IMG/VR virus record: IMGVR_UViG_3300017700_000588
Coordinates: 1 to 49,865 of that record
From: a virus
Taxonomy: Duplodnaviria; Caudoviricetes
Strand: one strand, 5' to 3'
Length of the DNA: 49,865 nucleotides
The notes under the pieces: model-generated
Database searches by the model: none
Seen by the model: only the letters and a program-made list of their open reading frames with translations
Told to the model about the DNA's origin: nothing
Made by a program: the position numbers and the translations under genes
In this document: piece by piece, positions 2 through 49,865 of the stretch
Numbering within the stretch: the first letter of the stretch is position 1
Layout of the letters: each line of letters starts with the position of its first letter

Positions 2-145
2 AATGAGATAATGAGAGGACCCGCACTGTTGAAAGCGCTCAACATTCATCTTAAGGTAGGAATTGAAGGTGAAGCGAAAGTGGGTCCTTGGTCCAAGGGC
101 ATTTCGCTCGAGAAGTGGGAGAAGCAATATGCCGAGAAAGTCTAA
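2..145 (+). CDS. C-terminal end of probable family A DNA polymerase (partial, runs off left edge)
   Basis: Frame 2 reads NEIMRGPALLKALNIHLKVGIEGEAKVGPWSKG...* ; LKV-x-IE-x-EAKVG-x-W resembles the PolA C-terminal signature; lies directly upstream of nuclease/recombinase genes. Confidence 0.6.
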   Translation, partial: NEIMRGPALLKALNIHLKVGIEGEAKVGPWSKGISLEKWEKQYAEKV

Positions 146-3467: not shown

Positions 3468-5022
3468 CCTGTTTAGCACGTGGGTGGCTAAAGCAACGAA
3501 GCTGGTCCCGCACATAAACATCGCCACTGATTTCATCACGTTCAAGACGTTGCCGTTTCCTCGCGCGTTATTCATCAACTACGAGCAGACGAATAACAAA
3601 CGCCTCCGAGGTCAATTGTCGCGCGTGCGCTGGACGTTCGCAGCGTTTGACGAAGCACAACGATTGAAGAAGCGATCATCGCTCTCCTCGCGCTTCGCAC
3701 GCATGCTGCGCGATGTCCCCCGGCGCGTTGCGATGAGCGGAACACCGTTCGATAAGAACCCGACCGATATGTGGGCCATCTGTCAGTTCGTGGACAAAAC
3801 CTTGTTCGGTGACAAGTGGAAGGATTTCTTCAAGCGGTACCTGAAGCCGGCCGGGTTCATGGGCTATGGTCATAAGTTTCGCACGAAGCAGCTGGAGCAC
3901 AAGTTCATTGACATCGTGGCCGGGATCACGCTGCGCGTCGGTCGTGAGATACTTGGGCTCAAGGGCGCTGGCATGAAGAAGCGGAAGTTCGACCTCGACC
4001 CTGTGCAGCGCAAGTTTTATGACCGGCTCGAGAAGGACCTCGTGGTCGAGTTCGAGGGCGACACGGACAAGCGCATCATCAGCACGCCGATGAAGGCAAC
4101 GCTCCAGATGAAGCTGCATCAGATCACCGGTGGGTTCATCAAGGACGACGAAGGCGAGATCAGCACAGTCGGTCGTGCGAAGTTGCGCGCGCTGCGCGAC
4201 CTGCTCGAAACGCAGGACAAGGTTCCTGTGGTCGTGTTCTACGTATATACCGAGGAGGGCGATCAGATCATGCGCCTGCTCGAGCGCATGTATCACAGGA
4301 CTGCGCGCATTCACGGTAAGGTCAAGGACACGAAGCGCATCAAGGCGAGGACGAATGTGATCGACGCATTCCAAGCCGGTCAGATCGATGCACTCGCGAT
4401 CCAGCAACGCACAGGAGGCGTTGGCGTTGATTTGTTCGCAGGATCGCTTGGCGTGTTCTACTCATCGACCCACAGCTGGATTGATTTCGAGCAAGCTAAG
4501 TCAAGGCTGGAAAGGTTCGGGCAAAAGAATTATGTAGACTTCTTTTACTTAATGGCGCGAAACACTGTTGACGAGGATAGATATGATGCTGTAACAAAGA
4601 AGAGCAACGTGAACGAAGTGACATTCCGTCGCTTGAAAAGGAGAAACGTCATGGCTCTCAAGCCCTCGAAGAAGACCGATACGAAGACCGACACCAAGGC
4701 GACCGCCAAGGGCGCCGACAAGGCCACGAAGTCGACGGCGAAGGCCGACAAGGCGCCGAAGGCCGAGACCAAGGAGTTCAAGTACGGCGTCGCCGATCTG
4801 CAGAAGCTGCTCGGCCACGGCGATCCGGCCTCGACCCGTGTTGCCCTCCGCAAGCACGAGATCGAGAAGGCCGGCAAGTCCTACGGCTGGGACTCCAAGG
4901 ACGAGCTCGAGGCGATCGTGAAGAAGATCAAGGCCGGCGCCGAGAAGGCCGAGCCGAAGACCAAGGCCGAGAAGGCGAAGCCCGCGGCTGACGCGAAGGC
5001 CAAGCCCGCCAAGAAGAAGTGA
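3286..5022 (+). CDS. SNF2-family DNA helicase with in-frame Lys/Ala-rich C-terminal extension
   Basis: LWPEQ, DQGTGKT, FDEAQ, MSGTP, GGVGVDL, QAKSRLERFGQ helicase motifs. Confidence 0.85.
   Translation: MLYSTLWPEQKKAARFVLRNSGTNLFFDQGTGKTHVTLAVMDEESRDVSNYQAIVVCLKTNLFSTWVAKATKLVPHINIATDFITFKTLPFPRALFINYEQTNNKRLRGQLSRVRWTFAAFDEAQRLKKRSSLSSRFARMLRDVPRRVAMSGTPFDKNPTDMWAICQFVDKTLFGDKWKDFFKRYLKPAGFMGYGHKFRTKQLEHKFIDIVAGITLRVGREILGLKGAGMKKRKFDLDPVQRKFYDRLEKDLVVEFEGDTDKRIISTPMKATLQMKLHQITGGFIKDDEGEISTVGRAKLRALRDLLETQDKVPVVVFYVYTEEGDQIMRLLERMYHRTARIHGKVKDTKRIKARTNVIDAFQAGQIDALAIQQRTGGVGVDLFAGSLGVFYSSTHSWIDFEQAKSRLERFGQKNYVDFFYLMARNTVDEDRYDAVTKKSNVNEVTFRRLKRRNVMALKPSKKTDTKTDTKATAKGADKATKSTAKADKAPKAETKEFKYGVADLQKLLGHGDPASTRVALRKHEIEKAGKSYGWDSKDELEAIVKKIKAGAEKAEPKTKAEKAKPAADAKAKPAKKK
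4651..5022 (+). CDS. Probable separately initiated histone-like/HTH DNA-binding protein nested in frame at the helicase 3' end
   Basis: AAGGAG at 4638-4643 precedes ATG 4651; abrupt switch to GC-ending codons and K/A/T-rich sequence. Confidence 0.6.
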   Translation: MALKPSKKTDTKTDTKATAKGADKATKSTAKADKAPKAETKEFKYGVADLQKLLGHGDPASTRVALRKHEIEKAGKSYGWDSKDELEAIVKKIKAGAEKAEPKTKAEKAKPAADAKAKPAKKK

Positions 5023-23533: not shown

Positions 23534-24133
23534 TTATTGGTCGCTACCAGCGAACCAGGTTGGGGTTGGTGAACCGAGGAGACTCCTCGTCCATCCAGAG
23601 AGTGACCGCACAGAATGCTTGAGGCAGGGATATGCAATCTTCCATGACTCGACAAACTGATCCCGCTCATGCCAAAGGTCGGCACTGAAGAAGTGCTTTT
23701 CCTGAGTTTCGAGCGGGATGCCTGCGAGAACAATTCGATCACAACCTTCTGCCTGAGCAGCCTTTACAGCCAATAACCCGGAAGAACCGCTTCCGGTCAT
23801 TCCAGGATAACGATAGTCCAGCCATTTGTCGATACGCGGGTCTCCGCCGGGCACGAGCCCGGGCTGGCACGGCTCATGCGCGTATGTGAGATAGTCGTCG
23901 TTCAAGCCGTTTTGGCGCCTAAGTGTTTGCCAATTCAGCATTTTTTCCGGGTGCAAGGATACCCAGAAGTCGATACGGTCGCTGTAGACCGTGCCGATGT
24001 CGTTCACCACGAAAACGAGAGCTGGTCGGAATTCGCGGAGTGCGATTGTGAGATCGTCCCAGACGCAGGCTGCTCCTCCGACGACGAGGGCGGTGCCGGG
24101 ACGGGGCTTGTCTGAGGCGGTTCGAGGGGCCAT
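23534..24133 (-). CDS. Glycosyltransferase-like protein (MAF/DUF115/GT29-like Rossmann fold)
   Basis: ALVVGGA..VWDDL, VVND, WVSLHPE, GSSG..AV..A...G..RIVLAG.P motif series. Confidence 0.5.
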   Translation of the reverse strand: MAPRTASDKPRPGTALVVGGAACVWDDLTIALREFRPALVFVVNDIGTVYSDRIDFWVSLHPEKMLNWQTLRRQNGLNDDYLTYAHEPCQPGLVPGGDPRIDKWLDYRYPGMTGSGSSGLLAVKAAQAEGCDRIVLAGIPLETQEKHFFSADLWHERDQFVESWKIAYPCLKHSVRSLSGWTRSLLGSPTPTWFAGSDQ

Positions 24134-24148
24134 AGGTCTAACATCTCC

Positions 24149-24685
24149 TCAGGTGTGGCACTGGACATGGGCGGTCATCCATTCGTCAACCTGGCCAATC
24201 TTCACCGGACCGATGACTGCAAGCTTGTTGCGCCACCAGCCGATGGGTTTGATCGTTTGCTGAACCTTCCGGCCTAGCAGGTCGTTGAACCCCAAGTCTC
24301 GGATGGGGATCGTAAAGTAGATTTGCTTGCGCGCGAGATGGTTGATGCACAGGAGCGTCTGTGCGACGTACTCCTCAGGCACGTGGTCCATCATCCCAAG
24401 GCAGACGCCGTAGTCTCGGGGTGATTTCTCATAGCAGTCCGACATCTGGGTGAGATTGCACAGGAGCGTGTCCTCATGCGCCTTCACCATATCGATGCCC
24501 ATTGTGATGATGCCGCGCTGGTTCAGCCAGTCAACCATGTGCCCATCACCGCAACCGAAGTCATAGACCATATCACCCCGGCCAAGGCCGAGGAGTCGCT
24601 GTATCTCTGCGGGTTTGTGGATGCCAGGAGCTTCAGCGTATTCCCGATGACGCCAAGCCTTGGTGAGCAGCGCGACTGAACTCAT
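24149..24685 (-). CDS. Class I SAM-dependent methyltransferase
   Basis: VYDFGCGDG motif I, GIDM, C..MMDHVP, T.KP..WW. Confidence 0.75.
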   Translation of the reverse strand: MSSVALLTKAWRHREYAEAPGIHKPAEIQRLLGLGRGDMVYDFGCGDGHMVDWLNQRGIITMGIDMVKAHEDTLLCNLTQMSDCYEKSPRDYGVCLGMMDHVPEEYVAQTLLCINHLARKQIYFTIPIRDLGFNDLLGRKVQQTIKPIGWWRNKLAVIGPVKIGQVDEWMTAHVQCHT

Positions 24686-27123: not shown

Positions 27124-28482
27124 CTAAATCTCCGCGCTGGTTGCTTTCCTGAGGGGCGAGATGAGTAGTTCGGTAAACGCCCAAATCGCAGCATCTGCGC
27201 GGTTGGGGGAGCCAACACCCATGTAGCCGTCATGAGTGAAGAAGCAGAGCTCGTCCTCCAGTACGGAGAACTGCCCGAGATGGTGAACCTTGTGCTGCTC
27301 GTAGAGCGAGGCCACAGGCTGTGCGCGGATGTGCTTGCCGCGGGAGGCGTGGATCAGTTTGATCGGGACGTCTCGTCCGCCAGGCACAGAGCGGATCGTG
27401 TTCTCCACCATAGCACCGCCGAAGTTGGACTCCGCAATGATGCAGTCGGCTTCGTACTCGTGGTAGGCTGCGACGGCTCGTGCGGCCCAGACACTCGGGG
27501 GCGCATTGCACGTGCGGTCGTCGATGATGACGCCGTGGCGGTCGTGGGTGCGCCCGGCGACCACAATGCCAACGTCGTCCTGGTTCTCGTTACCAGCCGT
27601 ACCGGACGGGTCCACAGAGACGATGATCCTCTGAAGCTCCGGGAGAGTTTTGGTGCGGGATCGCTCGATGTCGTCACGAGAGAACATGGCGCCCGGCACA
27701 TCGTCCAAGATCTCCGCGTCGATTTCCTGCCTGCCGAGTCGTGTGCCCTCGTACTTGTTGACCACCTGGTTGAAGAACGAGCGCGCGAGGTTGGCCTCGT
27801 TGTCGTAGGTGGAGCCGCGGGTGACATGGGTGTAGGAGTACTTGAGAATTTCCCTGATTAAGGGGAGAGGACGCGGGGTCGTGGTGATGAGCTGCTTGGG
27901 GTCATCCCCGAGTCGCATACCGAACTGCAGCTGATCCCACGTCTCCTGCATGTATCGCCACTTGGCCAACTCGTCGAGCCAGGCAAACTCGAACTGCGGT
28001 CCACGGAGCTGGTCAGGCTCGGTAGCGTTGTAGAGACCCGCGGATGCGCCGTTGGGCCAAGTCAGTCGTCGCTTGGATGGCTCATACAGGGGCCTAAACG
28101 CCTTCGGGCTATTTGCGAGGATACCGGATGGACCTTCCACCATGACGTCTCGCACGTCGGCCGCAGTTTCTCCGATGATGGCGAATAGTCGGGCACGTCC
28201 GCGACTGAGAGGGGTAGGGCCCTCAGCAAATGCACGGACAGTCTCAGCTCCGGTGCGTGTTTTACCGAAGCCGCGGCCGGCGAGAATACACCAGATAGAC
28301 CAAGGATCAGCAGGAACCTGCTGGTCAGGGCGACCCCAGAACTTCCAGTCATTTGCGAGGGCCTTTAATTGGTTTGGCGTCAATGACTCGAGGATCGACT
28401 GACGTTCTTGCTCGCTCAGCAAGGCGATTGAGCTGGCGAGAGATAGCTTCGGCTGGGCTCTCCTCGAGATGATTGAGCTCAT
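27124..28482 (-). CDS. terL: Terminase large subunit
   Basis: AGRGFGKTR Walker A, LRGPQF..AW.DELA, TTTP, VSVDP, RADA nuclease motifs. Confidence 0.95.
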   Translation of the reverse strand: MSSIISRRAQPKLSLASSIALLSEQERQSILESLTPNQLKALANDWKFWGRPDQQVPADPWSIWCILAGRGFGKTRTGAETVRAFAEGPTPLSRGRARLFAIIGETAADVRDVMVEGPSGILANSPKAFRPLYEPSKRRLTWPNGASAGLYNATEPDQLRGPQFEFAWLDELAKWRYMQETWDQLQFGMRLGDDPKQLITTTPRPLPLIREILKYSYTHVTRGSTYDNEANLARSFFNQVVNKYEGTRLGRQEIDAEILDDVPGAMFSRDDIERSRTKTLPELQRIIVSVDPSGTAGNENQDDVGIVVAGRTHDRHGVIIDDRTCNAPPSVWAARAVAAYHEYEADCIIAESNFGGAMVENTIRSVPGGRDVPIKLIHASRGKHIRAQPVASLYEQHKVHHLGQFSVLEDELCFFTHDGYMGVGSPNRADAAIWAFTELLISPLRKATSAEI

Positions 28483-28897
28483 CGGCGTTGGGGTCCTCTG
28501 GGATCGGTGCGTTATCGCGATAGATGTGTGGACGGCGGGACTTGAGGAGGAACATCAGCAGTACGTCGGACTTCTTTCGCACAGTGTTGACCCGGCGACC
28601 CTTGTAAAACACAGGCTCCATGATACCGGCCACAGCGCGACGGTGGAGTTCCGCTTCAATTGCGTCGGTACCCATGTCGAGGGCCTCTTGGAACGCGGCT
28701 TCTGCTCTGGGATTGCCTCTGCGAAACTTCCTGATCTGCTTGGTGGTGAGATCGGCCTGTCGCGCGGCGTCGTGAACGTTGCCGCACTCAATGAGATAGT
28801 CCAGAAACAGGCCGAACTTCTTGTCCGTGGGTAGGGTCACTGGTACCCAGTCCTCGAGTTCCTCTTCGACTTTCGCTAGTAGAAGTTTTGAAACCAT
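28349..28897 (-). CDS. terS: Terminase small subunit
   Basis: FL..L...GNV..AA, E.E..RRAV.G..EPVFYKG, SD.LL.FLLK..RP. Confidence 0.85.
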   Translation of the reverse strand: MVSKLLLAKVEEELEDWVPVTLPTDKKFGLFLDYLIECGNVHDAARQADLTTKQIRKFRRGNPRAEAAFQEALDMGTDAIEAELHRRAVAGIMEPVFYKGRRVNTVRKKSDVLLMFLLKSRRPHIYRDNAPIPEDPNADELNHLEESPAEAISRQLNRLAERARTSVDPRVIDAKPIKGPRK

Positions 28898-29011
28898 CTT
28901 CTTTTCCAAAATCGAGAAAGGGTTCTCCGAACCTTAGTCCTGTGCGTGGTGCGGGTCGGCGGCAAAATACGTGCCATCGGTCGTGGGTGGGACACGGTGG
29001 CATGGGTGTGG

Positions 29012-29027
29012 TTAATAACGCGTTAAC
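29012..29027. promoter_or_regulatory. CtrA-type box upstream of terS
   Basis: TTAA-taacgcg-TTAAC. Confidence 0.6.
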
Positions 29028-29072
29028 GCCCGCATTGTCAATGACAGCGCGGACGTCGCATGTATAGATTGG

Positions 29073-29387
29073 TTAACGGATTGTTATATCGATGCGGGTA
29101 TCATGCATATGCACAGGTGCGTGCATGATGTTGCATGTATATTGCATGTCTGTTCCGTATAACATCACGCATATACGATCATCATCATACATCATCACAC
29201 GATCAATACGTTGTGTATCAGGTTCGATTACATGCGTGTGTGTGCGTGCGAAGGTAATTGCACGCATCATATCAGGCGCGTTACATGCGATTACTTTGTC
29301 GTGTTCAACGAAATGCACGAGAAACACATGCAACGGGGCGTTGTTAACAAACGCGGGGCGGGAATTGCGTCGTCCGAATATGGTCAT
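29073..29387 (-). CDS. Hypothetical protein (cassette D gene 2; start uncertain 29387-29438)
   Basis: ORF co-oriented with cassette; composition-biased so both strands are open. Confidence 0.45.
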   Translation of the reverse strand: MTIFGRRNSRPAFVNNAPLHVFLVHFVEHDKVIACNAPDMMRAITFARTHTHVIEPDTQRIDRVMMYDDDRICVMLYGTDMQYTCNIMHAPVHMHDTRIDITIR

Positions 29388-29460
29388 GATTAACATCCCG
29401 TTAAAAGAATACGCACACACGATGCAGGTGCATCGCATGTGCGCAGCGTGTGTGTGACGT

Positions 29461-29793
29461 TCAGCGCGTCACGTGAGGCAGGATCGCAGCAACATCGGTC
29501 GCGCGATAATTCCAGGCGTGAACGGGCGTGGGCAGCGTCGCACGCACAGCGTCGTCAGCATACATCGCGCGAAAACGGGCGCGAATGGATTTCGCGTTTT
29601 TGTTGTGTGCGACGCACAACGAAACGAGGGAGACGGTTTCGGTCGACGCGTCGATGCGCGATTGCATGTCGTCGATGCGTTCGTTGATCGTCGCGCGATT
29701 GAGCGAGGTTTTTTCGCGCAGGGGTTTCACGTCGAGGATCGAGGCGAGTTCATTGTGACGCGCGACGAGGGAGGCAATCGTGATACGTGTCAT
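29461..29793 (-). CDS. Small HTH-like protein (cassette D gene 1)
   Basis: Follows promoter and GGAAA RBS; SLVSLC......KSIRARFR...W.Y motif. Confidence 0.65.
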   Translation of the reverse strand: MTRITIASLVARHNELASILDVKPLREKTSLNRATINERIDDMQSRIDASTETVSLVSLCVAHNKNAKSIRARFRAMYADDAVRATLPTPVHAWNYRATDVAAILPHVTR

Positions 29794-29839
29794 GATGTGA
29801 TTTCCGTTTGTTTGTGCATCGCGTTGTTGCGATACACAC

Positions 29840-29872
29840 AGTATACGATCAAGTTATTAAGAAACAGTTAAC
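29840..29872 (-). promoter_or_regulatory. CtrA-box promoter D
   Basis: TTAA-gaaacag-TTAAC at 29857-29872, 11 bp gap, -10 TATACT on minus strand. Confidence 0.75.
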
Positions 29873-30004
29873 ACGATCCCACAAACCTGCGACACGTTGG
29901 ATATAGTTAAAGAAATAATTTGACGGAAATCGGTGCATCAAATTGATGGGAATAATTTGAAGTAAAGAAATGGATCAAATTTTACCCAACCGCTCACTGA
30001 AACT

Positions 30005-30029
30005 GTTAACGTCAATTAATAACGTTAAC
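30005..30029. repeat. 25-bp palindromic element copy 1, overlapping CtrA box 30025-30039
   Basis: GTTAACGTCAATTAATAACGTTAAC. Confidence 0.8.
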
Positions 30030-30045
30030 GGGTCGTTAAGATGCG

Positions 30046-30085
30046 AAAAAAGTTCGGGTGCGGTTTTGGCACACCCGAACAATTT
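30046..30085 (-). terminator. Terminator of cassette C
   Basis: gttcgggtgt...acacccgaac stem with A5 on + strand (U tract on -). Confidence 0.7.
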
Positions 30086-30091
30086 GATCGA

Positions 30092-30421
30092 TTAAATCTC
30101 GAACACGTTGACGCGAATAATTCCATAAAAGTTATCGCGTAAATGGACGTTGTATGTGAACGGTTTCGTGGGATCGGCGTCGGCGATTTCGAGCGTGATG
30201 TCGGTTGGCATTTCGATGGGCGTCGTTTGGTCATCATCGAGGTCGGACATATCGATGTAATCGGTGCGGAGCGCGTCGAGCGCGGTCACGAGCACGGCGT
30301 CGCGGGTGGACGCGGCGCACGTTGGGTATGAGCAGATAAATTCGAGGTCGGCGTCGCGCACAGAGTCGCGCAAGTCGTCGAGGTCGGCAATCGTTGCGTA
30401 TGTCGCCACGTGAACGTGCAT
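30092..30421 (-). CDS. Hypothetical acidic protein (cassette C gene 3)
   Basis: ATG 30421 immediately after upstream stop; ends just before terminator. Confidence 0.6.
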   Translation of the reverse strand: MHVHVATYATIADLDDLRDSVRDADLEFICSYPTCAASTRDAVLVTALDALRTDYIDMSDLDDDQTTPIEMPTDITLEIADADPTKPFTYNVHLRDNFYGIIRVNVFEI

Positions 30422-30422
30422 G

Positions 30423-30695
30423 TCACCACATCCCGACGCACGTTCCGCGATCACGACCCGACGCGATTTCAAATTGCGATTGCGACGGACACGCGTTGCG
30501 TGGAGCGGGAGCGGAGTCGTTCGGGGCGCGACGAGCGTGGATCGTCATCACGGACGGGCGATAGGGCAACGTCGTGGTGCGGATCGTCACGTCGGATTTG
30601 GCGACGGTTTTCGTTTCGGCGCGCGCGTGGTGCACAATCGACACGGTCGGGACGATGATGCACAGGGCGAGGAGCAGGCGTTCGATGCGGCACAT
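30423..30695 (-). CDS. Small secreted protein (cassette C gene 2)
   Basis: MCRIERLLLALCIIVPTVSIVHHARA|E signal peptide; GGAAAGGA RBS. Confidence 0.55.
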   Translation of the reverse strand: MCRIERLLLALCIIVPTVSIVHHARAETKTVAKSDVTIRTTTLPYRPSVMTIHARRAPNDSAPAPRNACPSQSQFEIASGRDRGTCVGMW

Positions 30696-30699
30696 TTGA

Positions 30700-30822
30700 T
30701 TAAAATCCTTTCCATTCGCGACGGGCGAGTTTGTCAACGTTCATCGAGTTGAGGACATCGTTGATCGCGACGCGGGACACGCGAGGTTGACGCGAGAAAA
30801 ACCAATCAAGGAAGCGTTTCAT
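30700..30822 (-). CDS. 40-aa peptide (cassette C gene 1; not in ORF track)
   Basis: MKRFLDWFFSRQPRVSRVAINDVLNSMNVDKLARREWKGF*; preceded by GGGAATGATGAC like the other cassette leaders. Confidence 0.6.
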   Translation of the reverse strand: MKRFLDWFFSRQPRVSRVAINDVLNSMNVDKLARREWKGF

Positions 30823-30847
30823 GTCATCATTCCCGTTTCGATATGTC

Positions 30848-30920
30848 ATCATACGATGCAAGTATTAAGAAATCGTTAACGTGGCGACGACATGCAAGAA
30901 ATGGTTAAGAGACCATTAAC
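30848..30920 (-). promoter_or_regulatory. CtrA-box promoter C plus second upstream box
   Basis: TTAA-gaaatcg-TTAAC 30865-30880, 11 bp gap, -10 TATGAT; second box TTAA-gagacca-TTAAC 30905-30920. Confidence 0.75.
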
Positions 30921-30931
30921 GTAGACGATCC

Positions 30932-30956
30932 GTTAACGTTAATTATTGACGTTAAC
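30932..30956. repeat. 25-bp palindromic element copy 2
   Basis: GTTAACGTTAATTATTGACGTTAAC. Confidence 0.8.
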
Positions 30957-30970
30957 AAGTTGTGAAGATT

Positions 30971-31010
30971 AAAATGGACCCATTCCCGATTTGGGAATGG
31001 ATCGCATTTG
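30971..31010 (-). terminator. Terminator of cassette B
   Basis: ccattccc-gattt-gggaatgg stem with flanking aaaatg/cattt. Confidence 0.65.
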
Positions 31011-31011
31011 A

Positions 31012-31251
31012 TTAAACGATGACGCGGTAGCGCGCGGAGAGGTCGGCGATGGCGAGATCGATTTGGTTCAATTTGTAAGGACGTTCGGTGTAGCGCGTCG
31101 CGGCGCGGAGCATGTCGGTTTTCGAGTAGCGGGAATTTTTCATTCCAACTTTAATCAATTTCAACTGACCGCGAATTGACAGGGCGGCGAAGGCGTTGAC
31201 GAGTTCGGGTGTGTCAGCGACGATCATGACAATTTTCCTTAAATCGAACAC
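31012..31251 (-). CDS. Hypothetical basic protein (cassette B gene 2)
   Basis: Overlaps gene 1 stop; LKLIKVGMK.SR motif; ends at terminator. Confidence 0.6.
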   Translation of the reverse strand: MFDLRKIVMIVADTPELVNAFAALSIRGQLKLIKVGMKNSRYSKTDMLRAATRYTERPYKLNQIDLAIADLSARYRVIV

Positions 31252-31430
31252 ATGGGTTTGATCGACACGCGATAGGATCGCGCGCGCAAGGCGGTAGCGC
31301 GTTTCATCGCGTCGTTGAATGTGAGGTGGGAAATTTCACGACGTTCGTTGAAGCGATTGATGAAGACGAGCGTGTGACGGGTGGTGTCGTCATATCGCGC
31401 GAAGGTCAATGCGTCATTCAGGTTGGTCAT
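31239..31430 (-). CDS. Hypothetical protein (cassette B gene 1)
   Basis: AAAGGAAATGAC-ATG leader after promoter. Confidence 0.6.
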   Translation of the reverse strand: MTNLNDALTFARYDDTTRHTLVFINRFNERREISHLTFNDAMKRATALRARSYRVSIKPMCSI

Positions 31431-31456
31431 GTCATTTCCTTTCGTTCAACACATAC

Positions 31457-31539
31457 ATAATACGAGACAGGTGTTAAGAAAGTGTTAACGTGGCAAGAAA
31501 TCATTTGCGGCCATGCGGCATGGTTAATGGGTGGTTAAC
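31457..31539 (-). promoter_or_regulatory. CtrA-box promoter B plus second upstream box
   Basis: TTAA-gaaagtg-TTAAC 31474-31489, 11 bp gap, -10 TATTAT; second box TTAA-tgggtgg-TTAAC 31524-31539. Confidence 0.75.
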
Positions 31540-31550
31540 GTTCACGAAGC

Positions 31551-31575
31551 GGTAACGTTATTAATTAACGTTAAC
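31551..31575. repeat. 25-bp palindromic element copy 3, overlapping CtrA box 31571-31585
   Basis: GGTAACGTTATTAATTAACGTTAAC. Confidence 0.75.
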
Positions 31576-31589
31576 GGGTTGTTAAGGTC

Positions 31590-31630
31590 AAAAATTCGAC
31601 GGGTGCCGATTTGAGACACCCATCAAATTT
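31590..31630 (-). terminator. Terminator of cassette A
   Basis: aattcgacgggtg...cacccatcaaatt stem with A run on + strand. Confidence 0.65.
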
Positions 31631-31632
31631 GA

Positions 31633-31830
31633 TTATTCTTTAACTTGAATTGTCACAACCGTTTCATCGTCGCAGTACAGGTTGACGCGATCACGAGAGA
31701 CGATTTCGATCTCGAAACCGTCAACGTCGAAGTCGTGAGCGTAGTCGAGCGCAGCGTCGCGTGCATCGCGTGCAACGTAAAACGCGACGACATCGACATG
31801 CGTGATTTTGTAGGTGCGATACGTATTCAT
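31633..31830 (-). CDS. Hypothetical acidic protein (cassette A gene 2)
   Basis: ATGA overlap with gene 1. Confidence 0.6.
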   Translation of the reverse strand: MNTYRTYKITHVDVVAFYVARDARDAALDYAHDFDVDGFEIEIVSRDRVNLYCDDETVVTIQVKE

Positions 31831-32081
31831 GACATCAACGCGATGCGAACAATAAAACGATCATCAAACGATGCGTGATGAAATTCGTATTCGTAATCAT
31901 CACACGTGATCGCGCATGCGTATGTCGTCGCGTCATCATCGTTGATGCGCACGCGAATGATTTCGCACGCGTCATCGTATTCGATTTCAAATGACGTCAC
32001 GTCGCGTTGCGTCGTCGTGCGCATCATTTTCGTGAACGTGTCGCGAAGGTATTTCGTTTCGATGTCGCGTGCGTTGTGCAT
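31827..32081 (-). CDS. Hypothetical acidic protein (cassette A gene 1), paralogue of 36169..36417
   Basis: AAAGGAATGACGAC-ATG leader; FEIEYD...EII.V....Y...I..DD.EY.F. Confidence 0.65.
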   Translation of the reverse strand: MHNARDIETKYLRDTFTKMMRTTTQRDVTSFEIEYDDACEIIRVRINDDDATTYACAITCDDYEYEFHHASFDDRFIVRIALMS

Positions 32082-32106
32082 GTCGTCATTCCTTTTTCGA
32101 TGTCAC

Positions 32107-32139
32107 ATCATCGCACGAAGTTATTAAGAAATCGTAAAC
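32107..32139 (-). promoter_or_regulatory. CtrA-box promoter A (one mismatch)
   Basis: TTAA-gaaatcg-TAAAC 32124-32139, 11 bp gap, -10 GATGAT. Confidence 0.65.
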
Positions 32140-32174
32140 AGGAATGGTTAAGAAATCGAAAACCCGCGACAGCG

Positions 32175-32242
32175 CCCGTTAACGTTAATTGTTAAGGTTA
32201 ACAGAGGGGGGGAACCCGTTAACGTTAATTTTTAAGGTTAAT
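32175..32242. repeat. Tandem pair of the 25-bp palindromic element (copies 4 and 5), 40-bp period
   Basis: cccGTTAACGTTAATTGTTAAGGTTAAC and cccGTTAACGTTAATTTTTAAGGTTAAT. Confidence 0.85.
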
Positions 32243-32426
32243 AGATTGAATTTGAAGAAAAGTCGACGCGTTAACCATCCACCCATCGTTCGATAATTCG
32301 GTCTACCGCGCTACCGCTGCCACCGCTCTGCCGGCAAGGCTGCCCCTGCCGACATTGCGTATTTCGCAGAATTGCCTGGACGCTAGCTAGGCGTGCGTTG
32401 TCGCTCGCGCTGTCATCGTGATGCGT

Positions 32427-32855
32427 TCAACGTCGCGAACGCACCTCAGCGACGTCCTGTGCGCGCCTCAGGATCGCCGCATCGTTGTCATCGAGCGACA
32501 TCGCATCGCTGAATGCATCTGCGGTCTGAACTAACCCCGCACACTGCGCCAACCACAGGAGCATTGTGCGTGTCTGCTGAGCCTGCGCCAGGATCACCTG
32601 GTCCACAGGTCGGTGGCCGGGTTGAGTGCAGATGTAGAAGCTGTCCTGGAACAGCATGTCCGCTGTGGACATCTGATCCATCAGCCACTGCTCGGTCTGC
32701 TGCCGCAGTTCCGGCGTCGAGACGACCAGCCCCGGGGAACCAGCTTTCAAAACGCCAGCTTCCGAAACGCCAGCTTCCGCCCCCTGGTCAGCCAGCTGCT
32801 GTTGGTGCAGCTCCTCGATCTGTGCCTGCGTCTTCGCCCAATGGTCCGTGCTCAC
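32427..32855 (-). CDS. Hypothetical Gln-rich protein
   Basis: GTG start overlapping upstream stop (GTGA), AGGGAG RBS. Confidence 0.55.
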   Translation of the reverse strand: MSTDHWAKTQAQIEELHQQQLADQGAEAGVSEAGVLKAGSPGLVVSTPELRQQTEQWLMDQMSTADMLFQDSFYICTQPGHRPVDQVILAQAQQTRTMLLWLAQCAGLVQTADAFSDAMSLDDNDAAILRRAQDVAEVRSRR

Positions 32856-33511
32856 TTCAATGCTCCCTTGATTGCCTTGCTAACCCGATCCTTGTCCGAC
32901 GGTGCGAACCACCAGCCGTACTCGGGCTTCGTCCACTTGAGCGTGCGCAGTGCAGCCCGAGCGTGTGGCGGCTTGACGTCCGGCACCAGCTCTGCGATGT
33001 GGACAAAGCCAGCGGGACGGTTGGCTGACTTGCTCGGTGCCTTGTCCTTCTTCTCCCGGCGCGGCTTGGGATTGTCCGGATCGCCGCCTCGTTCCTTGGG
33101 ACGACGCTCGTGGTCGGCACCCACCACAGGGCCATCGCCGAGGAACTGTGCGATCATGCCCACATACGGCTCGGGCAGCTCCCAGTCCGTGTCGGCTTCC
33201 GCCAGCTTCTCGAGTGTGTCGTCGTCTCGAGTGGTGACCGTCAGACCTTCCGGCCAGACGAGCTGCGTCCAGCGACCCGACTTGTGCTTGAGCCACTTGG
33301 GCTCGCCTTCTTGGTTTTCGATGAGGGTTTCGAGGAAGGCGGCGGCGCCGGCCCAAGTTGACCAGCTGACGACGAGGAGCTTTTCGGGGTTGTCTTCTCG
33401 GCCGCAGTAGATTGTGACGATGGGCGGCCTCGACGGCGATGAGGGAGTATGCGCGTCAGAAGCTCGTGTATCTGTCGCAGCTGCGGATCGGTTTCGTCTA
33501 GCCATTCCCAT
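32852..33511 (-). CDS. Hypothetical protein with C-terminal HTH-like domain (start uncertain)
   Basis: HIAELV....P.HARAALR...W.K..YGWWF. Confidence 0.6.
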   Translation of the reverse strand: MGMARRNRSAAATDTRASDAHTPSSPSRPPIVTIYCGREDNPEKLLVVSWSTWAGAAAFLETLIENQEGEPKWLKHKSGRWTQLVWPEGLTVTTRDDDTLEKLAEADTDWELPEPYVGMIAQFLGDGPVVGADHERRPKERGGDPDNPKPRREKKDKAPSKSANRPAGFVHIAELVPDVKPPHARAALRTLKWTKPEYGWWFAPSDKDRVSKAIKGALK

Positions 33512-33603
33512 CTCCCAGTGTTTGTGAAGTGAAGTCGGAGGATGCTCCGCAGGTTGCGGGGCTCGAGATCATATTGGCGGCAGAGATGCTTGAGAACAAT
33601 CAA
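33241..33603 (-). CDS. Small HTH-like protein (N-terminal ~50 aa), TTG start
   Basis: AAAGGAAA RBS after promoter; LKHLCRQY.LEPRNLRSILR....GRWEW; Ser-rich tail overlaps next ORF. Confidence 0.55.
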   Translation of the reverse strand: MIVLKHLCRQYDLEPRNLRSILRLHFTNTGRWEWLDETDPQLRQIHELLTRILPHRRRGRPSSQSTAAEKTTPKSSSSSAGQLGPAPPPSSKPSSKTKKASPSGSSTSRVAGRSSSGRKV

Positions 33604-33632
33604 GGCCGTGTTTCCTTTGTTTCGATATGTCT

Positions 33633-33685
33633 ACTCTAGAGACTATGGGTCATTGCGTCAACTGCAGTCTAGAGACAAGGTTAAC
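33633..33685 (-). promoter_or_regulatory. Sigma70-type promoter with upstream GTTAAC
   Basis: GTTAAC-18-TTGACG-17-TAGAGT on minus strand. Confidence 0.65.
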
Positions 33686-33891
33686 AAGGTATAAAGAGAG
33701 CAAGATATCGGCTGATTGGCCTTTTGGATCCACCGTGCGGTCTGGCCGCCCCGTAACCGATTTCTTGCTAGCGGATAAGGTTCACGCGTAACGCCGGACG
33801 AGCATACGCACATACGACTCAATCACGTTGCTTTATCGATCAAATCAATATGCCAGCTCCAAAAGATCAATGATTTCAATGTCAAGCACTG

Positions 33892-34061
33892 TCTTACAAT
33901 CCAATAATCACTGGTGCCGCATGCTTAAATCCGGAATTCAAATCGACAATTCAACTCCCACCCCTAATGATTTCAATGACTTACGAATACCGCTTACAAG
34001 GCATTATTGTTTTGCGTTCCAGATTACATACTGAGCCACCATCAATTATTGGATTGTAAGA
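33892..34061. repeat. 17-bp perfect inverted repeat in AT-rich divergent intergenic region
   Basis: TCTTACAATCCAATAAT (33892-33908) and ATTATTGGATTGTAAGA (34045-34061). Confidence 0.8.
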
Positions 34062-34224
34062 TATTATATATTATTGATATTATTACATTATTTATATATC
34101 CATTCATCATTCATCGATAAAGACCGTTTTGAGTGTTCGCGCGCGCATGCGATGAGAGTATGAAAGTTGACACACAGACCCGTCCTCAAGTACAATACCT
34201 CCGAAGTCATGGGGAGGACCCACA

Positions 34225-36168: not shown

Positions 36169-36417
36169 ATGCGCCAGGATCAAATGAAGCAATCGCAGGT
36201 GGAGCACATCCTCCGCCACTTCAAGGCTTGGTTCATCGAGCCGAGCCGAAACTTCCAGATCCACTTCGATGAGGATACCGAGGTCATCACCGTCGCCGTC
36301 TCCCACGGCGTAGGCGCCTACGAGATGGAGGTTGGGTCGGACGATGACGAATACCGCTTCGTCAACCTCGACAACCCGGCCGACATCATCACCTTCCCGC
36401 TGGAGGACCAGGAATGA
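36169..36417 (+). CDS. Hypothetical acidic protein, paralogue of 31827..32081
   Basis: AGAGGACGAC-ATG; FQIHFD...EVI.V....Y...V..DD.EY.F. Confidence 0.7.
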   Translation: MRQDQMKQSQVEHILRHFKAWFIEPSRNFQIHFDEDTEVITVAVSHGVGAYEMEVGSDDDEYRFVNLDNPADIITFPLEDQE

Positions 36418-41059: not shown

Positions 41060-41122
41060 CTGCCTGTTCTACCCACTACCCTTCACCCGCGTCAACGATG
41101 ACGCCAACTGCGGAGAAAGACC

Positions 41123-42990: not shown

Positions 42991-43610
42991 TGCCCGTCAA
43001 GGCTATCATCGTTGTCGGCCACGGTAAGGATTGCCCTTACTGTGGCCGAGTCATGTCCATCGATGGCAAGTCGGATACTGACGCTTATCCGACGCGCGAT
43101 CACATCAACCCGCGCATGGCGGGCGGCGGACCTCGCATCATCGTATGCCGGAAGTGTAACCTCGACAAGCAGGCGCAGTCATTATCTGGCTGGCACCAGG
43201 TGCTCGTGAGGACCGGCGATGAGCGTGCGCCGAGCGTCGCTGCGTTTATTGAGCTGGTGCGAACTGGCGCTCACCTGAGGATCATTGCACGTTATGAGAG
43301 AGAAGCCGACAAACTCAACAAGTACAAGCGCTCTGACGAAACCGATGAGTCGCGTCATGCGAAGCACATCTTGGAGCAACGAAGAAGAACAGCTCGTGCG
43401 AAAGCTCGCAGAGGACGGCTTAACCGCCGACGCAATCGCGAAAGAGATGAAGCGAACGCGCAGCTCGGTCTTGGGATTCATTCACAGGAACAAGATCGTG
43501 CTGCACCGCCGGGACCACAGGGTGCCCATGAAGGATGTCAAGCCCACCACCTTCGTCAGGGGCACCAAGAAGGCGGAAGTGCAGAGGACTCCCGGTTCCG
43601 CTGTGATTGA
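42990..43610 (+). CDS. HNH endonuclease
   Basis: CPYCG, TRDHINPR..GG, VCRKCN..K. Confidence 0.8.
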   Translation: MPVKAIIVVGHGKDCPYCGRVMSIDGKSDTDAYPTRDHINPRMAGGGPRIIVCRKCNLDKQAQSLSGWHQVLVRTGDERAPSVAAFIELVRTGAHLRIIARYEREADKLNKYKRSDETDESRHAKHILEQRRRTARAKARRGRLNRRRNRERDEANAQLGLGIHSQEQDRAAPPGPQGAHEGCQAHHLRQGHQEGGSAEDSRFRCD

Positions 43611-43884
43611 CACGACGAAGCGGGAAGGCAACAACCGCTTCAACTATCGCCGCGCGGAAGACATGCTCAAGGCACCACAGACGGTGGGTGATTGGCCGAA
43701 GCCCGAGAATGAGCATTCGGTGCTCATCGCCGATCTGAAGTCGACCCACTGTCAGATGCCTCTGTGGGACTTTATCGCGCCTGACAGCAAGTACTGTGGT
43801 CGTCCTCGTCTTCGGTTCCGTGAAGTCACCGTTTCGCCCTACTGCGCGGGTTGTCACAAACTCGCGTATCAACCGCCTCGTTAA
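43345..43884 (+). CDS. gcrA: GcrA-family cell-cycle transcriptional regulator
   Basis: WS.E....L...GLTA..IA....TR.SVLG.IHR; L..L....C..PL, YCG, PYC..C...AY. Confidence 0.85.
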   Translation: MSRVMRSTSWSNEEEQLVRKLAEDGLTADAIAKEMKRTRSSVLGFIHRNKIVLHRRDHRVPMKDVKPTTFVRGTKKAEVQRTPGSAVIDTTKREGNNRFNYRRAEDMLKAPQTVGDWPKPENEHSVLIADLKSTHCQMPLWDFIAPDSKYCGRPRLRFREVTVSPYCAGCHKLAYQPPR

Positions 43885-46235: not shown

Positions 46236-46865
46236 ATGACGATCATCGCGACAGTTCTCAAGTCAGGAGGCATCTACACGCCTGAGCACGTGCGCATGCT
46301 CGAGGATCAGCTCGGTCACGATTGTCCCTTGACAGTCTACACCGACAGTCTCGAGCTGTGCATTCAACGTGGATCGCTGGCGCGTCGGCTGACTTACCAC
46401 CTGCCGGGTTGGTGGAGCAAGATGGAGCTCTTCAACCCGGCCCTGCCAGACGACATCATCTTCTTCGATCTGGACACTGTGATCCGCCGTCGACCGCGTG
46501 TTTTCACGCATGCGGTTCGCGAGCCGATGATGCTTCGGGACTTCTACCGCCCCGGAGGTTTGCAATCTTCCGTCATGTGCATTCCGCACCACTTCAAGGC
46601 CTTCATCTGGAAACAGTGGATGGAGGGCCCAGAAGAGTGGATGTCACTGCTGGGAGAACAGGGCCTGGGCGATCAGGCATTCCTCGAGAAGGTGAGCCAG
46701 AAATTCTGGGGCATTCTTCAAGACAAGTACCCGAGCGAGTACGTCAGCTGGAAGGCCGATGATCTCGCCGGCAAGTCACTACCATCTCTCGCACGGGTGA
46801 TCGTATTCCACGGTCAGCCCAAACCATGGGACATACCACATGCTCGTCAAACCTGGCGCAACTAA
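46236..46865 (+). CDS. GT-A fold glycosyltransferase (GT8-like)
   Basis: SGG.Y...HV..L, GWWSK.ELF, FFDLDTV (DxD), SSVM, GDQ.FL, FHG.PKPW. Confidence 0.75.
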   Translation: MTIIATVLKSGGIYTPEHVRMLEDQLGHDCPLTVYTDSLELCIQRGSLARRLTYHLPGWWSKMELFNPALPDDIIFFDLDTVIRRRPRVFTHAVREPMMLRDFYRPGGLQSSVMCIPHHFKAFIWKQWMEGPEEWMSLLGEQGLGDQAFLEKVSQKFWGILQDKYPSEYVSWKADDLAGKSLPSLARVIVFHGQPKPWDIPHARQTWRN

Positions 46866-47538
46866 AGAAGTCCGCGGGTTCCGCTGGCCAGCTTACGATA
46901 CTGCCTGTGCGGAAGTCGTCTTCGACAGCATCCCAGACCTCGAGCGGGCTGTCGGCTACTGTCAGCAGAAGCGGACGGTCATTCAGGCCGGCGGCAACTG
47001 CGGCGTCTGGGCACGTCACCTCGCCGACATCTTCTCACAGGTGTGGACGTGGGAACCCGACACGCTGAACTACCACTGCCTCGCGTTCAACACGGTCCAC
47101 AGGAAGAACGTGTTCGCAGTCAACGCTGCGCTGGGTGATCGAGTGGGCGCTATCCTTATGGACGCACCAGAGGCTAACAACTGCGGGGCACTTCAAGTGG
47201 ACCAGTCCGCGGTCGTTGGCGCTCCACATACGATCCCGGTGGAGATGATCGACAATAACCTGACGCTCGGCCACGTCGATCTGATGTATCTCGACCTGGA
47301 AGGTTATGAGCTGCACGCAATCGCTGGCGCCGTGCAGACTATCACTCGTTGCCAGCCTATTATCGCCGTCGAGGACAAGGGCCTGAGCGAGCGTTACGGC
47401 GTTGCAAAGGGCGATGTTCTTCGATACATTCAAGACACTTTCAACTATGAGGTATGCGATCAATATGCAAGAGATTATGTCCTCCGACCCAAGTCTCGAC
47501 CCGCGACTCTTAGCGGTGCTCGACAAGCACCACGCTAG
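46840..47538 (+). CDS. FkbM-family methyltransferase
   Basis: IQAGGNCG.W, WEPD..N..CL..N, NAALG, D.MYLDLEGYE..A..GA..TI....P.I..E. Confidence 0.85.
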   Translation: MLVKPGATKEVRGFRWPAYDTACAEVVFDSIPDLERAVGYCQQKRTVIQAGGNCGVWARHLADIFSQVWTWEPDTLNYHCLAFNTVHRKNVFAVNAALGDRVGAILMDAPEANNCGALQVDQSAVVGAPHTIPVEMIDNNLTLGHVDLMYLDLEGYELHAIAGAVQTITRCQPIIAVEDKGLSERYGVAKGDVLRYIQDTFNYEVCDQYARDYVLRPKSRPATLSGARQAPR

Positions 47539-48267: not shown

Positions 48268-49865
48268 ACTTGCGCAGGAACTTCTCGCCGTCGCGCATCG
48301 TCGTCTTGATGCCCATCTGGCTGATCATCTGCTGAAGCATGACCTTGCTGATCGAGCGCTTCTGACTCTCGAGCTCAACCTGGTCATACATGCGATCCAT
48401 CTTCATGTATTCCTTGAGGAACGCCTTGCACTTCTCGGGGTCCTCACGGCTGTCGTCCTTCTTGCGGTTCTTCTCGGCGCTCGCCGTCAGGTCGCTGTCG
48501 CGTAGGTCAGTGTCAAACCCGTCGATGGTAACCTTCGCGCGATTGAAGCGACCGGCACGCGCGGGCAATGCTTCGATGAAGAACTTGAGCGCCGGCTCTG
48601 GTTTGCAGAAGTTGGCCTTGATCGTTTTGATGATCGCCATGTCTTCGTCGTTCGGGTGCATGCGCACGAGGTGCACCATGCGCGCCATGCCTGTGAATGC
48701 GATTGATCCCAGGCCTGCGTGCTTCACGTTGTCGCGTGACGTCTTGCCGAGATGTCGGATGAGCACGACAGAGCAGTCGTAGTCCTGAGCGATGATCGAT
48801 AGCCGGCTGAGCGTTTGCTGCACGTCGCTCGCCTTGTGCGTATCGCTTCCTCCCATGTAGCTCATGATCGTATCGAAGACGATGATGTCCGGCTCGTATT
48901 CCTCGACGACCTTCTCGAACGCCTCGAAGTCTTCAAAGTCAGTGAGGCTGAACGGTCGGTAGTATTGCATATACTGGTCGAGCTTCTCCTCCTCGAGACC
49001 CATGTCGATGAGGCGTGACTTCGTGTCAGTCTCGGGATCGTTCTCCAAGTCGATATACATGACCTTGGCATTGCGCACGCCTCGTTGACCGTACTGGCCC
49101 ATGCTCGGGAAGCGTTCACCGTTGATCGCGCTGACGCACATCTGCTGCACGAGGAACGACTTGCCGATACCCGGATCGCCTTCAACGATGGTGATCTTGC
49201 CTTTGACGAGCCAGCCAGGTGTCACCCACTGCACAGGCTTCATGACCACGTCGTTCATGGTAATGTAGCCCTTGTCAGCTTCCTCGCTCTCGGTCGCTGG
49301 GTTCTTGTCGCGCAATCGCCCGGACGTCAGTCGCTCGCCGATGACCTTTTCGATTTCTCTACGCAGCTGCTTCGGTCTGTCGGCGAACTTGTTCCACACT
49401 GATCCGGACACAAGTGTGGCAACCTCGTCACCATCCATACCGGCGTCAAGGAGACCATGATACAGTTTCCACAAAATTTCGGAACGGTCCCCAGTGACGC
49501 GTTGGGACAGGAGAAGTTGTCGGATCGGCTGGCTGATGCGCTTCTGGTACCGCCCATAGACGGACGCCCTGTCCTCTTTCGAGTATTCACCCTTAGCTTC
49601 CTTTTCTGCCTCGGGCGACTTGAGGTGCTGCTTGAGCCGAGCGACGGATATCGTCTTCGTCGTGTCGGACCACAGGAGCTTGCCGGGCTTGCCCTTGCCG
49701 TACTTGTAATTCATCGTGCCGGGTATGCGCAGGACCTGTGTGATGTCCCACCCGCCCTTGTCAGCACCAATGCTGTAGGACAGCCGCTTATTCAGCTCCT
49801 TGTCCATCGTGCGATCAATATGCCACACGCCCGCGAAGCGCCCGGGTGATGACTCCCACGCGAGC
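48251..49865 (-). CDS. Primase-helicase (RepB-type primase + AAA_25/RepA helicase), partial at right edge
   Basis: Frame open to window end (WESSPGRFAGVW), LRIPGT.NYKY, DRS..LW, GDPGIGKS, IVFDT, IRHL.K. Confidence 0.85.
   Translation of the reverse strand, partial: LAWESSPGRFAGVWHIDRTMDKELNKRLSYSIGADKGGWDITQVLRIPGTMNYKYGKGKPGKLLWSDTTKTISVARLKQHLKSPEAEKEAKGEYSKEDRASVYGRYQKRISQPIRQLLLSQRVTGDRSEILWKLYHGLLDAGMDGDEVATLVSGSVWNKFADRPKQLRREIEKVIGERLTSGRLRDKNPATESEEADKGYITMNDVVMKPVQWVTPGWLVKGKITIVEGDPGIGKSFLVQQMCVSAINGERFPSMGQYGQRGVRNAKVMYIDLENDPETDTKSRLIDMGLEEEKLDQYMQYYRPFSLTDFEDFEAFEKVVEEYEPDIIVFDTIMSYMGGSDTHKASDVQQTLSRLSIIAQDYDCSVVLIRHLGKTSRDNVKHAGLGSIAFTGMARMVHLVRMHPNDEDMAIIKTIKANFCKPEPALKFFIEALPARAGRFNRAKVTIDGFDTDLRDSDLTASAEKNRKKDDSREDPEKCKAFLKEYMKMDRMYDQVELESQKRSISKVMLQQMISQMGIKTTMRDGEKFLRKFTPKA

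Follow-up and report, generated by a model that had tools for sequence, protein, structure and literature searches.

Context-limited hypermodification of phage DNA is already known. In the 5-hydroxymethyluracil (hmU) phages M6, ViI, and phiW-14, hypermodification of thymidine is limited by dinucleotide, with TG and TC contexts (PMC7653180). Dinucleotide-limited hypermodification of cytosine has likewise been described in phages, in GpC-directed systems with a C5 methyltransferase, TET, and a glycosyltransferase and in CmoX (10.1101/2023.12.21.572611; PMC12783734). Here we describe a block of DNA in a tailed-phage contig (Duplodnaviria; Caudoviricetes; IMG/VR record IMGVR_UViG_3300017700_000588, positions 1 to 49,865), which is referred to as the window over its whole length of 49,865 nucleotides (nt). 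In this block (29020 to 32292, minus strand), the sense strand is without most AG and GG (RG, where R is a purine) and the template strand is without most CT and CC (CY, where Y is a pyrimidine). The sequence patterns reported below lead us to think, at slightly better than even chances, that CY cytosines carry a protective mark that hinders transcription, that the block is an immediate-early region that avoids the mark, and that block products or replication open the remainder of the genome.

All genes in the block lie on the minus (sense) strand. We found 16 AG and 56 GG on this strand, versus shuffle means of 176 and 150; the lowest values in 1,000 mononucleotide shuffles were 144 and 113, respectively. 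Once AG and GG were fixed, sense CT was still lowered (128 versus 197) and sense CC was not (184 versus 157). RG avoidance is real and mostly one-sided, with the sense strand poor in AG and GG and the template in CT and CC. An earlier sequence-only reading had claimed avoidance of all four pairs over 29040 to 32170. On the plus strand of that span, CT (16 observed/168 expected) and CC (46/143) are strongly down, as claimed, but AG (120/223) and GG (176/258) are far less so, and the strand asymmetry had been missed. The same reading had singled out 31815 to 32046 as free of all four pairs, and we found 0 of each there, versus 13 to 15.5 expected of each. This stretch falls within a run of 234 nt (31814 to 32047) that is free of AG, GG, CT, and CC on both strands and is the longest such run in the window; the second longest is 65 nt. 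Two other stretches had been called very poor in these pairs. The first, 29101 to 29330, is low on both strands (counts of 4, 1, 5, and 2), and the second, 31633 to 31815, is poor in GG (2), CC (2), and CT (3) but not in AG (10 versus 11.8).

The words that the block does and does not tolerate bear on its cause. Ultraviolet dimers were rejected as the cause, since template TT and TC are plentiful. The sequence-only reading had offered, as one of two branches, a purge of defense words from the first-entering DNA, meaning restriction sites or Cas9-type NGG/NAG protospacer-adjacent motifs (PAMs). NRG is a Cas9 PAM, and AGCT, CCGG, and AGCC/GGCT are missing from the block, as a purge would have it. 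However, the ban is stricter for AG than for GG and falls mostly on a single strand, the block is rich in palindromes of the GATC, CGCG, and GTTAAC types, and RG/CY sites are tolerated elsewhere in the genome. This branch fits poorly, and we regard it as highly improbable.

To hold the proteins constant, we redrew the codons of nine block genes (2,211 nt) from late-gene codons in 500 draws. AG was observed 9 times versus 81.4 ± 6.0 expected and GG 18 times versus 69.2 ± 7.0; the effect was smaller for CT (84 versus 109.8 ± 6.3) and CC (139 versus 163.4 ± 9.7). Lysine is encoded by AAA in 22 of 22 cases in the block and in 20 of 252 in late genes. The constraint also overrides protein sequence, as had been claimed: the open reading frame (ORF) at 31827 to 32081 has no Gly, Pro, or Trp, the ORF at 31239 to 31430 has no Gly, and Gly makes up 1.4% of block proteins versus 8.4% of late-gene proteins. 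In contrast, an acidic protein gene resembling the first block gene but lying outside the block (36169 to 36417, plus strand) has ordinary composition and sits at the null (AG 15 versus 17.5), and the small terminase gene (28349 to 28897, minus strand), used as a control, is also ordinary. We concluded that the depletion is independent of protein and GC content, neither of which explained it in the codon and shuffle checks that the sequence-only reading had proposed. The block is about 50% GC versus 58% overall, which is what a by-product of low GC or amino acid content would have in its favor; given how widely the shuffle and codon nulls fail and that the look-alike gene is at the null, a by-product is refuted and has practically no chance of being correct.

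We then asked how the block is spread among relatives. The block is present in three of 79 terminase loci, namely, the closest ones (L001 to L003, 71 to 93%), and absent from the other 76. The sense strand has 0 AG in 2,060 nt of L001 and 1 AG in 2,826 nt of L002, and many of the leftover GG sit at ribosome-binding sites. Among nine metagenome loci, one is the window contig, two are L002 and L003 again, and the other six all carry the block. The cultured Brevundimonas phages Polewnik and Strzyga, whose isolation has been reported (PMC10070969), have a block of about 3 kb, and MW202777 and MD02 have small versions. Neither termini nor DNA modification of Polewnik and Strzyga is mentioned in the parts of that report consulted. 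Ten further family genomes showed islands in four, clean on both strands in G008, G009, and G015 and on one strand in the fourth, and none in six. In the relative G005, the clean stretch spans one gene, starting at its promoter, and is a pure sense effect (CT 41/45). A blastn comparison of the block with annotated phages gave no match. Short flanks of the Polewnik block (L176:6950-7180 and 3755-3960) have scarce CT on the strand that is AG-poor inside the block. Separately, an unrelated locus bearing a glycosyltransferase gene has a stretch (L148:10001-10900) poor in GA (14/55) and CC.

Polewnik and Strzyga allowed strand and transcript to be separated. Their block contains a reverse-oriented gene behind a terminator-like hairpin; third codon positions account for 59 of its 113 substitutions, which marks it as a real gene. 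On its own sense strand, AG and GG are normal, and CT (5 versus 32 ± 4) and CC (13 and 8 versus 40 ± 5) are depleted. In these two phages, avoidance follows the physical strand and not the gene's own mRNA. Weak promoter-like sites aimed into the reverse gene are kept in both phages, with scores of 8.5 to 8.8, at the bottom of the seed range; their conservation makes antisense reading of the gene possible. Untranscribed DNA is also affected. In 13 promoter-like spacers, some of which may be chance matches, we counted AG 0/11 and CT 4/15 but ordinary numbers of GG and CC; the DNA ahead of the first promoter is likewise poor in AG.

These data bear on an RNA-level factor, that is, an endoribonuclease or RNA-modifying toxin of the host or phage that attacks AG and GG and to which early mRNAs are immune. 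The strong sense-strand bias, the near absence of AG in L001 and L002, the residual GG at ribosome-binding sites, and the pure sense effect in G005 are all as such a factor would leave them. However, it does not predict the AG- and CT-poor promoter spacers, the lowered sense CT in the window, the islands clean on both strands, or the palindrome signature described below, and the mRNA of the reverse gene has normal AG and GG. We consider this explanation very unlikely.

The edges of the block suggested another alternative. Short imperfect tandem repeats (32300 to 32350) mark its upstream edge, and by eye, repeat clusters also precede the block in L002, L003, L167, L170, Polewnik, Strzyga, MD02, and G009. 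These repeats are possibly a genome end; sequence depth is flat, which for contigs alone is uninformative about a terminal repeat. If the mark exists, the one-strand rule could serve a polar process other than gene reading, for instance, entry of the DNA by one end, duplication of a terminal repeat during packaging, or blocking of primer synthesis on one strand. Obedience of the reverse gene to the physical strand and the start of the block directly after the repeats speak for this, as does the initiation of primers with pppAG at template CT-purine by bacterial primases. On the other hand, the clean stretch of G005 is one gene that begins at a promoter, and three islands are clean on both strands. 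We judge a polar process to be unlikely. Just upstream of the block, a region of ordinary composition (32852 to 33603) contains a pair of conserved ORFs that overlap and have helix-turn-helix-like ends; the family of the ORF at 32852 is present in 9 of 10 further family genomes. Next to them, an AT-rich divergent region (33600 to 34200), at which the L167 and L170 contigs start and two wastewater contigs stop, is a candidate origin or terminus.

If CY/RG carries a protective mark, restriction-type sites that hold CY/RG need no avoidance, and this premise underlies a test on DNA outside the block. We removed the block from the window, G005, pooled G001 and G002, Polewnik, MW202777, and MD02 and used 27 loci as controls. 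Of the 64 6-bp palindromes, 13 were dropped for low expectation, leaving 24 with RG/CY and 27 without. The family median observed/expected ratio was 0.98 with RG/CY versus 0.63 without, and in controls it was 0.68 versus 0.81. The family exceeded the controls at 22 of 24 sites with RG/CY versus 8 of 27 without (P = 5e-7). Among all one- and two-pair splits, AG/CT+CC/GG ranked first of 54 both when the window was taken by itself and when Polewnik was. In nine further genomes it was again first, of 55 splits (P = 2e-8); in the tenth, G011, which was set apart after showing no signature, it ranked 14th. Overall, the ratio was higher for sites with RG/CY in 51 of 58 loci; this set of 58 includes two loci that duplicate G005 and G001.

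Two method controls, for which 50,000 bases each were used, behaved as expected. For YuA, a relative of M6, the split returned was CA/TG, in agreement with the published TG context of M6, ViI, and phiW-14. Xp12, in which all cytosine is 5-methylcytosine, gave no clear split. YuA differs from the window phage in that it has no comparable TG/CA-free stretch in 50,000 of its 58,663 bases.

Flanking bases point to which pair is marked. A pyrimidine follows 661 of 1,095 surviving G....C palindromes, versus 516 expected, with a ratio of 0.93 in controls; in the window, the count was 117 of 222 versus 96 expected. The test was significant in five of six sets, and the neighboring-base alternative was weak (ratio, 1.10). 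The flank test favors the C:G pair of CY/RG over the neighboring base. GAATC is strongly avoided (12/270) versus GACTC (481/626). In the window outside the block, GAATC/GATTC occurs once versus 55 expected and GACTC/GAGTC is kept, and the same holds in family loci L181 to L236. TGATCA, RGATCY, and CGATCG are also avoided in both. The genome of the phage Serbin (L179) nearly lacks GATC, with 3 sites.

The palindrome signature fits an inverted logic equally well. Here the block would be unmarked on one strand and would avoid RG/CY since unmarked CY/RG is the target of a nuclease or terminator of phage or host origin, on the model of T4 Alc and DenB, which act on unmodified cytosine DNA. Exonuclease, HNH, and DenV-like proteins are encoded in the genome. 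However, this explanation requires a reason for the block to escape marking, and no candidate enzyme was seen to track with the block. We consider it quite unlikely.

As the other of its two branches, the sequence-only reading had proposed a context-specific modification and suggested looking for base-modification genes outside the window. This branch is independently supported by the sparing of RG/CY palindromes genome-wide and by modification-type genes that relatives carry in the part missing from this contig. The contig is truncated, with positions 1 to 145 inside a polymerase gene (2 to 145, plus strand, encodes the last 47 residues of a family A DNA polymerase) and 49828 to 49865 inside a primase gene. 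The corresponding gap of about 6 kb in G005 and G001 holds a polymerase A with a uracil-DNA glycosylase-like domain, a dCMP deaminase, two thymidylate synthase (TS)-like genes that we call TS1 and TS2, a MazG-like pyrophosphatase, and a kinase. We infer that the missing part of the window phage would carry the same gene block.

The best alignment of TS1 is to T4 dCMP hydroxymethylase (1b49) and is weak (E = 0.007). According to published residue rules, Asp at ThyA position 177 denotes the dCMP type, methylases have Leu and hydroxymethylases Asp or Glu at position 143, and D169N denotes a hydroxylase (PMC13326640). TS1 has the catalytic Cys and, at the position of ThyA N177, an Asp that is present in every TS1 motif printed (1 of 58 loci had no TS1 motif). 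At the position of ThyA L143 it has Arg throughout (R-x-P-C) in place of Asp or Glu. It lacks the D169N substitution of the 5-hydroxy-dCMP synthases of RB69 and DLP3, R-S-C-D being kept. By these residue rules, TS1 is classed as dCMP-type and not as a hydroxylase. TS2, in which the canonical Asn177 is by eye also replaced by Asp at the equivalent place, has many invariant Lys and Arg residues and 940 relatives. Its structural model (pLDDT, 87.8) gave a Foldseek E value of 1.4e-5 and a Z score of 12.9 (root mean square deviation, 3.5; 179 residues aligned), and the top seven representatives in the structural comparison all have the TS fold (Z, 9.1 to 12.9). TS2 is confidently predicted from the model to have a TS fold. 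A separate ThyX-like gene is present in the window (41098), Polewnik, and MW202777; that at 41098 had no match in the PDB. In G001, TS1 has an in-frame LAGLIDADG-like insertion, probably an intein (L165:6083-7276).

Like T4, with glucosylated 5-hydroxymethylcytosine (hmC), and RB69 and DLP3, with 5-hydroxy-dCMP (PMC13326640), this family has a TS fold with the catalytic Cys and Asp at ThyA position 177, a kinase, a pyrophosphatase, a deaminase, and a separate dTMP synthase. Unlike those phages, it has Arg at position 143, Asp kept at 169, a tandem second TS-fold gene, and a context-limited signature. It shares with the hmU phages a block of TS-homologue genes with its own polymerase and presumed protection from restriction only where a site holds the dinucleotide, but its context is CY/RG and its TS homologue is dCMP-type. 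It differs from the GpC-directed systems in its CpY context, and we found no hit to a C5 methyltransferase with a dioxygenase such as TET, or to DpdA/Que, in 74 ORFs of the fragmentary window or in 29 selected G005 ORFs.

The signature tracks the TS1 and TS2 pair and not the glycosyltransferase at 46236. That glycosyltransferase and the FkbM gene at 46840 were rejected as the writer: they are absent from Polewnik, MW202777, and MD02 and occur in 1 of 10 further genomes, and only 2 of 79 glycosyltransferase-carrying loci have a block within 10 kb. Homologues elsewhere lie among head genes. Gene 23534 is conserved in the close clade, with an Atlas lead to an MptE-like protein, but was rejected: its structural prediction was of low quality (pLDDT, 50.8) and matched no fold at E ≤ 0.001, and Polewnik lacks the gene. 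A DenV-like gene (47773) was attractive for a pyrimidine-pair footprint but is patchily distributed and occurs in PMBT14 and STP12 as well. The window holds an MptE-like protein and a methyltransferase in the head operon (23534 to 24685) and a GT-A glycosyltransferase and FkbM methyltransferase among middle genes (46236 to 47538). The clustering of such homologues with head genes elsewhere suggests virion glycosylation.

Taken together, we propose the following mechanism. Virion DNA would carry a bulky group on C preceding C or T (5'-CC and 5'-CT), which would shield restriction sites. The mark would hinder host RNA polymerase mostly via the template strand and would affect promoter binding on either strand at CT/AG. 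The block would be a set of immediate-early genes written without the mark context, so that host enzymes read it first, and a block product, perhaps the 110-amino-acid (aa) protein described below, or replication would unlock the remaining genes. The existence of the mark, its position on C, the hindrance of transcription, the immediate-early role, and the unlocking are each inferred. Bulky C5 groups inhibit bacterial RNA polymerase in vitro, and T7 RNA polymerase is more sensitive to them on the template strand (PMC11550810).

Several observations weigh against this mechanism. TS1 was not found in the window itself. The palindrome signature persists in five of the six further family genomes that lack the block. 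Signature and block are both missing from Serbin, PMBT14, and STP12, each of which encodes a similar TS1; Serbin and PMBT14 have a distant TS2, and STP12 has no TS2 hit, a pattern that points to the TS2 subfamily but may merely reflect kinship. RGATCY sites, despite the RG and CY within them, are under strong avoidance (GGATCC 15/77; AGATCC 35/142). A nucleotide-level TS pathway should alter every C, and 82% of type II enzymes are blocked when hmC is complete (PMC7653180); avoidance of sites with C would then be needless, yet it persists at CGATCG (15/214), CACGTG, and GACGTC. The context limit therefore needs an extra step. The flank test was not significant in G001 and G002 (P = 0.09), and the P values are optimistic because the genomes are related and the palindromes overlap. 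Finally, the sense strand of the reverse gene avoids CY, which a template block explains only given antisense transcription from weak candidate promoters. A bolder version of the mechanism, which we hold to be possible but doubtful, takes TS2 to be a TS-fold enzyme whose substrate is polymeric DNA. By itself or together with the Arg143 TS1, it would produce a novel cytosine base at CpY and nowhere else. Once marked, the genome would by default be silent; the host could read only a mark-free boot sector, located at the end that enters the cell, from which the unlocking protein would be made.

The first-step-transfer DNA of T5, the early region of T7, and the host takeover module of SPO1 are comparison systems for the block. 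As in those early regions, strong host-type promoters and small genes are clustered, possibly at an end; to our knowledge, no two-letter strand-specific ban is associated with any of the three. Eight TTAA-N7-TTAA boxes (starting at 29390, 29857, 30025, 30865, 30905, 31474, 31524, and 31571; 29390 to 31585) form repeated predicted promoter modules in the block, and there are none in the remaining window. These boxes are CtrA-like in sequence. A phage-encoded GcrA homologue (43285 to 43884; Pfam PF07750) points to an alphaproteobacterial host.

The genes of the block, all on the minus strand, are small. The first (31827 to 32081) encodes an acidic protein of 84 aa with 65% identity to an L002 gene. 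It is followed by a small acidic ORF without family match (31633 to 31830; 65 aa), a 63-aa ORF kept in L002 and G005 (31239 to 31430), a small ORF of about 71 aa with an inferred start (31012 to 31227), and a 40-aa ORF kept in L003 (30700 to 30822). Next are a 90-aa ORF with a hydrophobic N terminus and, by eye, look-alikes in L002, L003, L167, and L170 (30423 to 30695) and an acidic ORF of about 109 aa (30092 to 30421). The gene at 29461 to 29793 encodes a conserved basic protein of 110 aa that is helix-turn-helix-like by eye, with no family hit, and is a candidate activator of later genes. The last ORF (29073 to 29387; 104 aa) had no PHROGs match and is kept in L001 to L003; this conservation indicates that the 29101 to 29330 stretch is coding. 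Seven of the nine small ORFs were scanned for families, with no match above the cutoff. At the downstream edge, a conserved 13-nt motif (28985 to 28997, minus strand) lies directly before the small terminase gene.

Literature searches, which miss most subscription journals, turned up no report of a CpY context, of a TS pair with Arg143, or of an early block that is strand-biased and free of the mark. We offer a way to infer modification context from sequence alone. If the proposed mechanism is true, islands and palindrome statistics could reveal modification contexts across uncultured phages. It predicts an uncharacterized cytosine chemistry and a CpY context in a large family, with 940 TS2 relatives and two cultured phages. 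If true, the block would also show what DNA hypermodification costs a phage, whose first genes must be written around the protective mark and nearly drop Gly and Trp.

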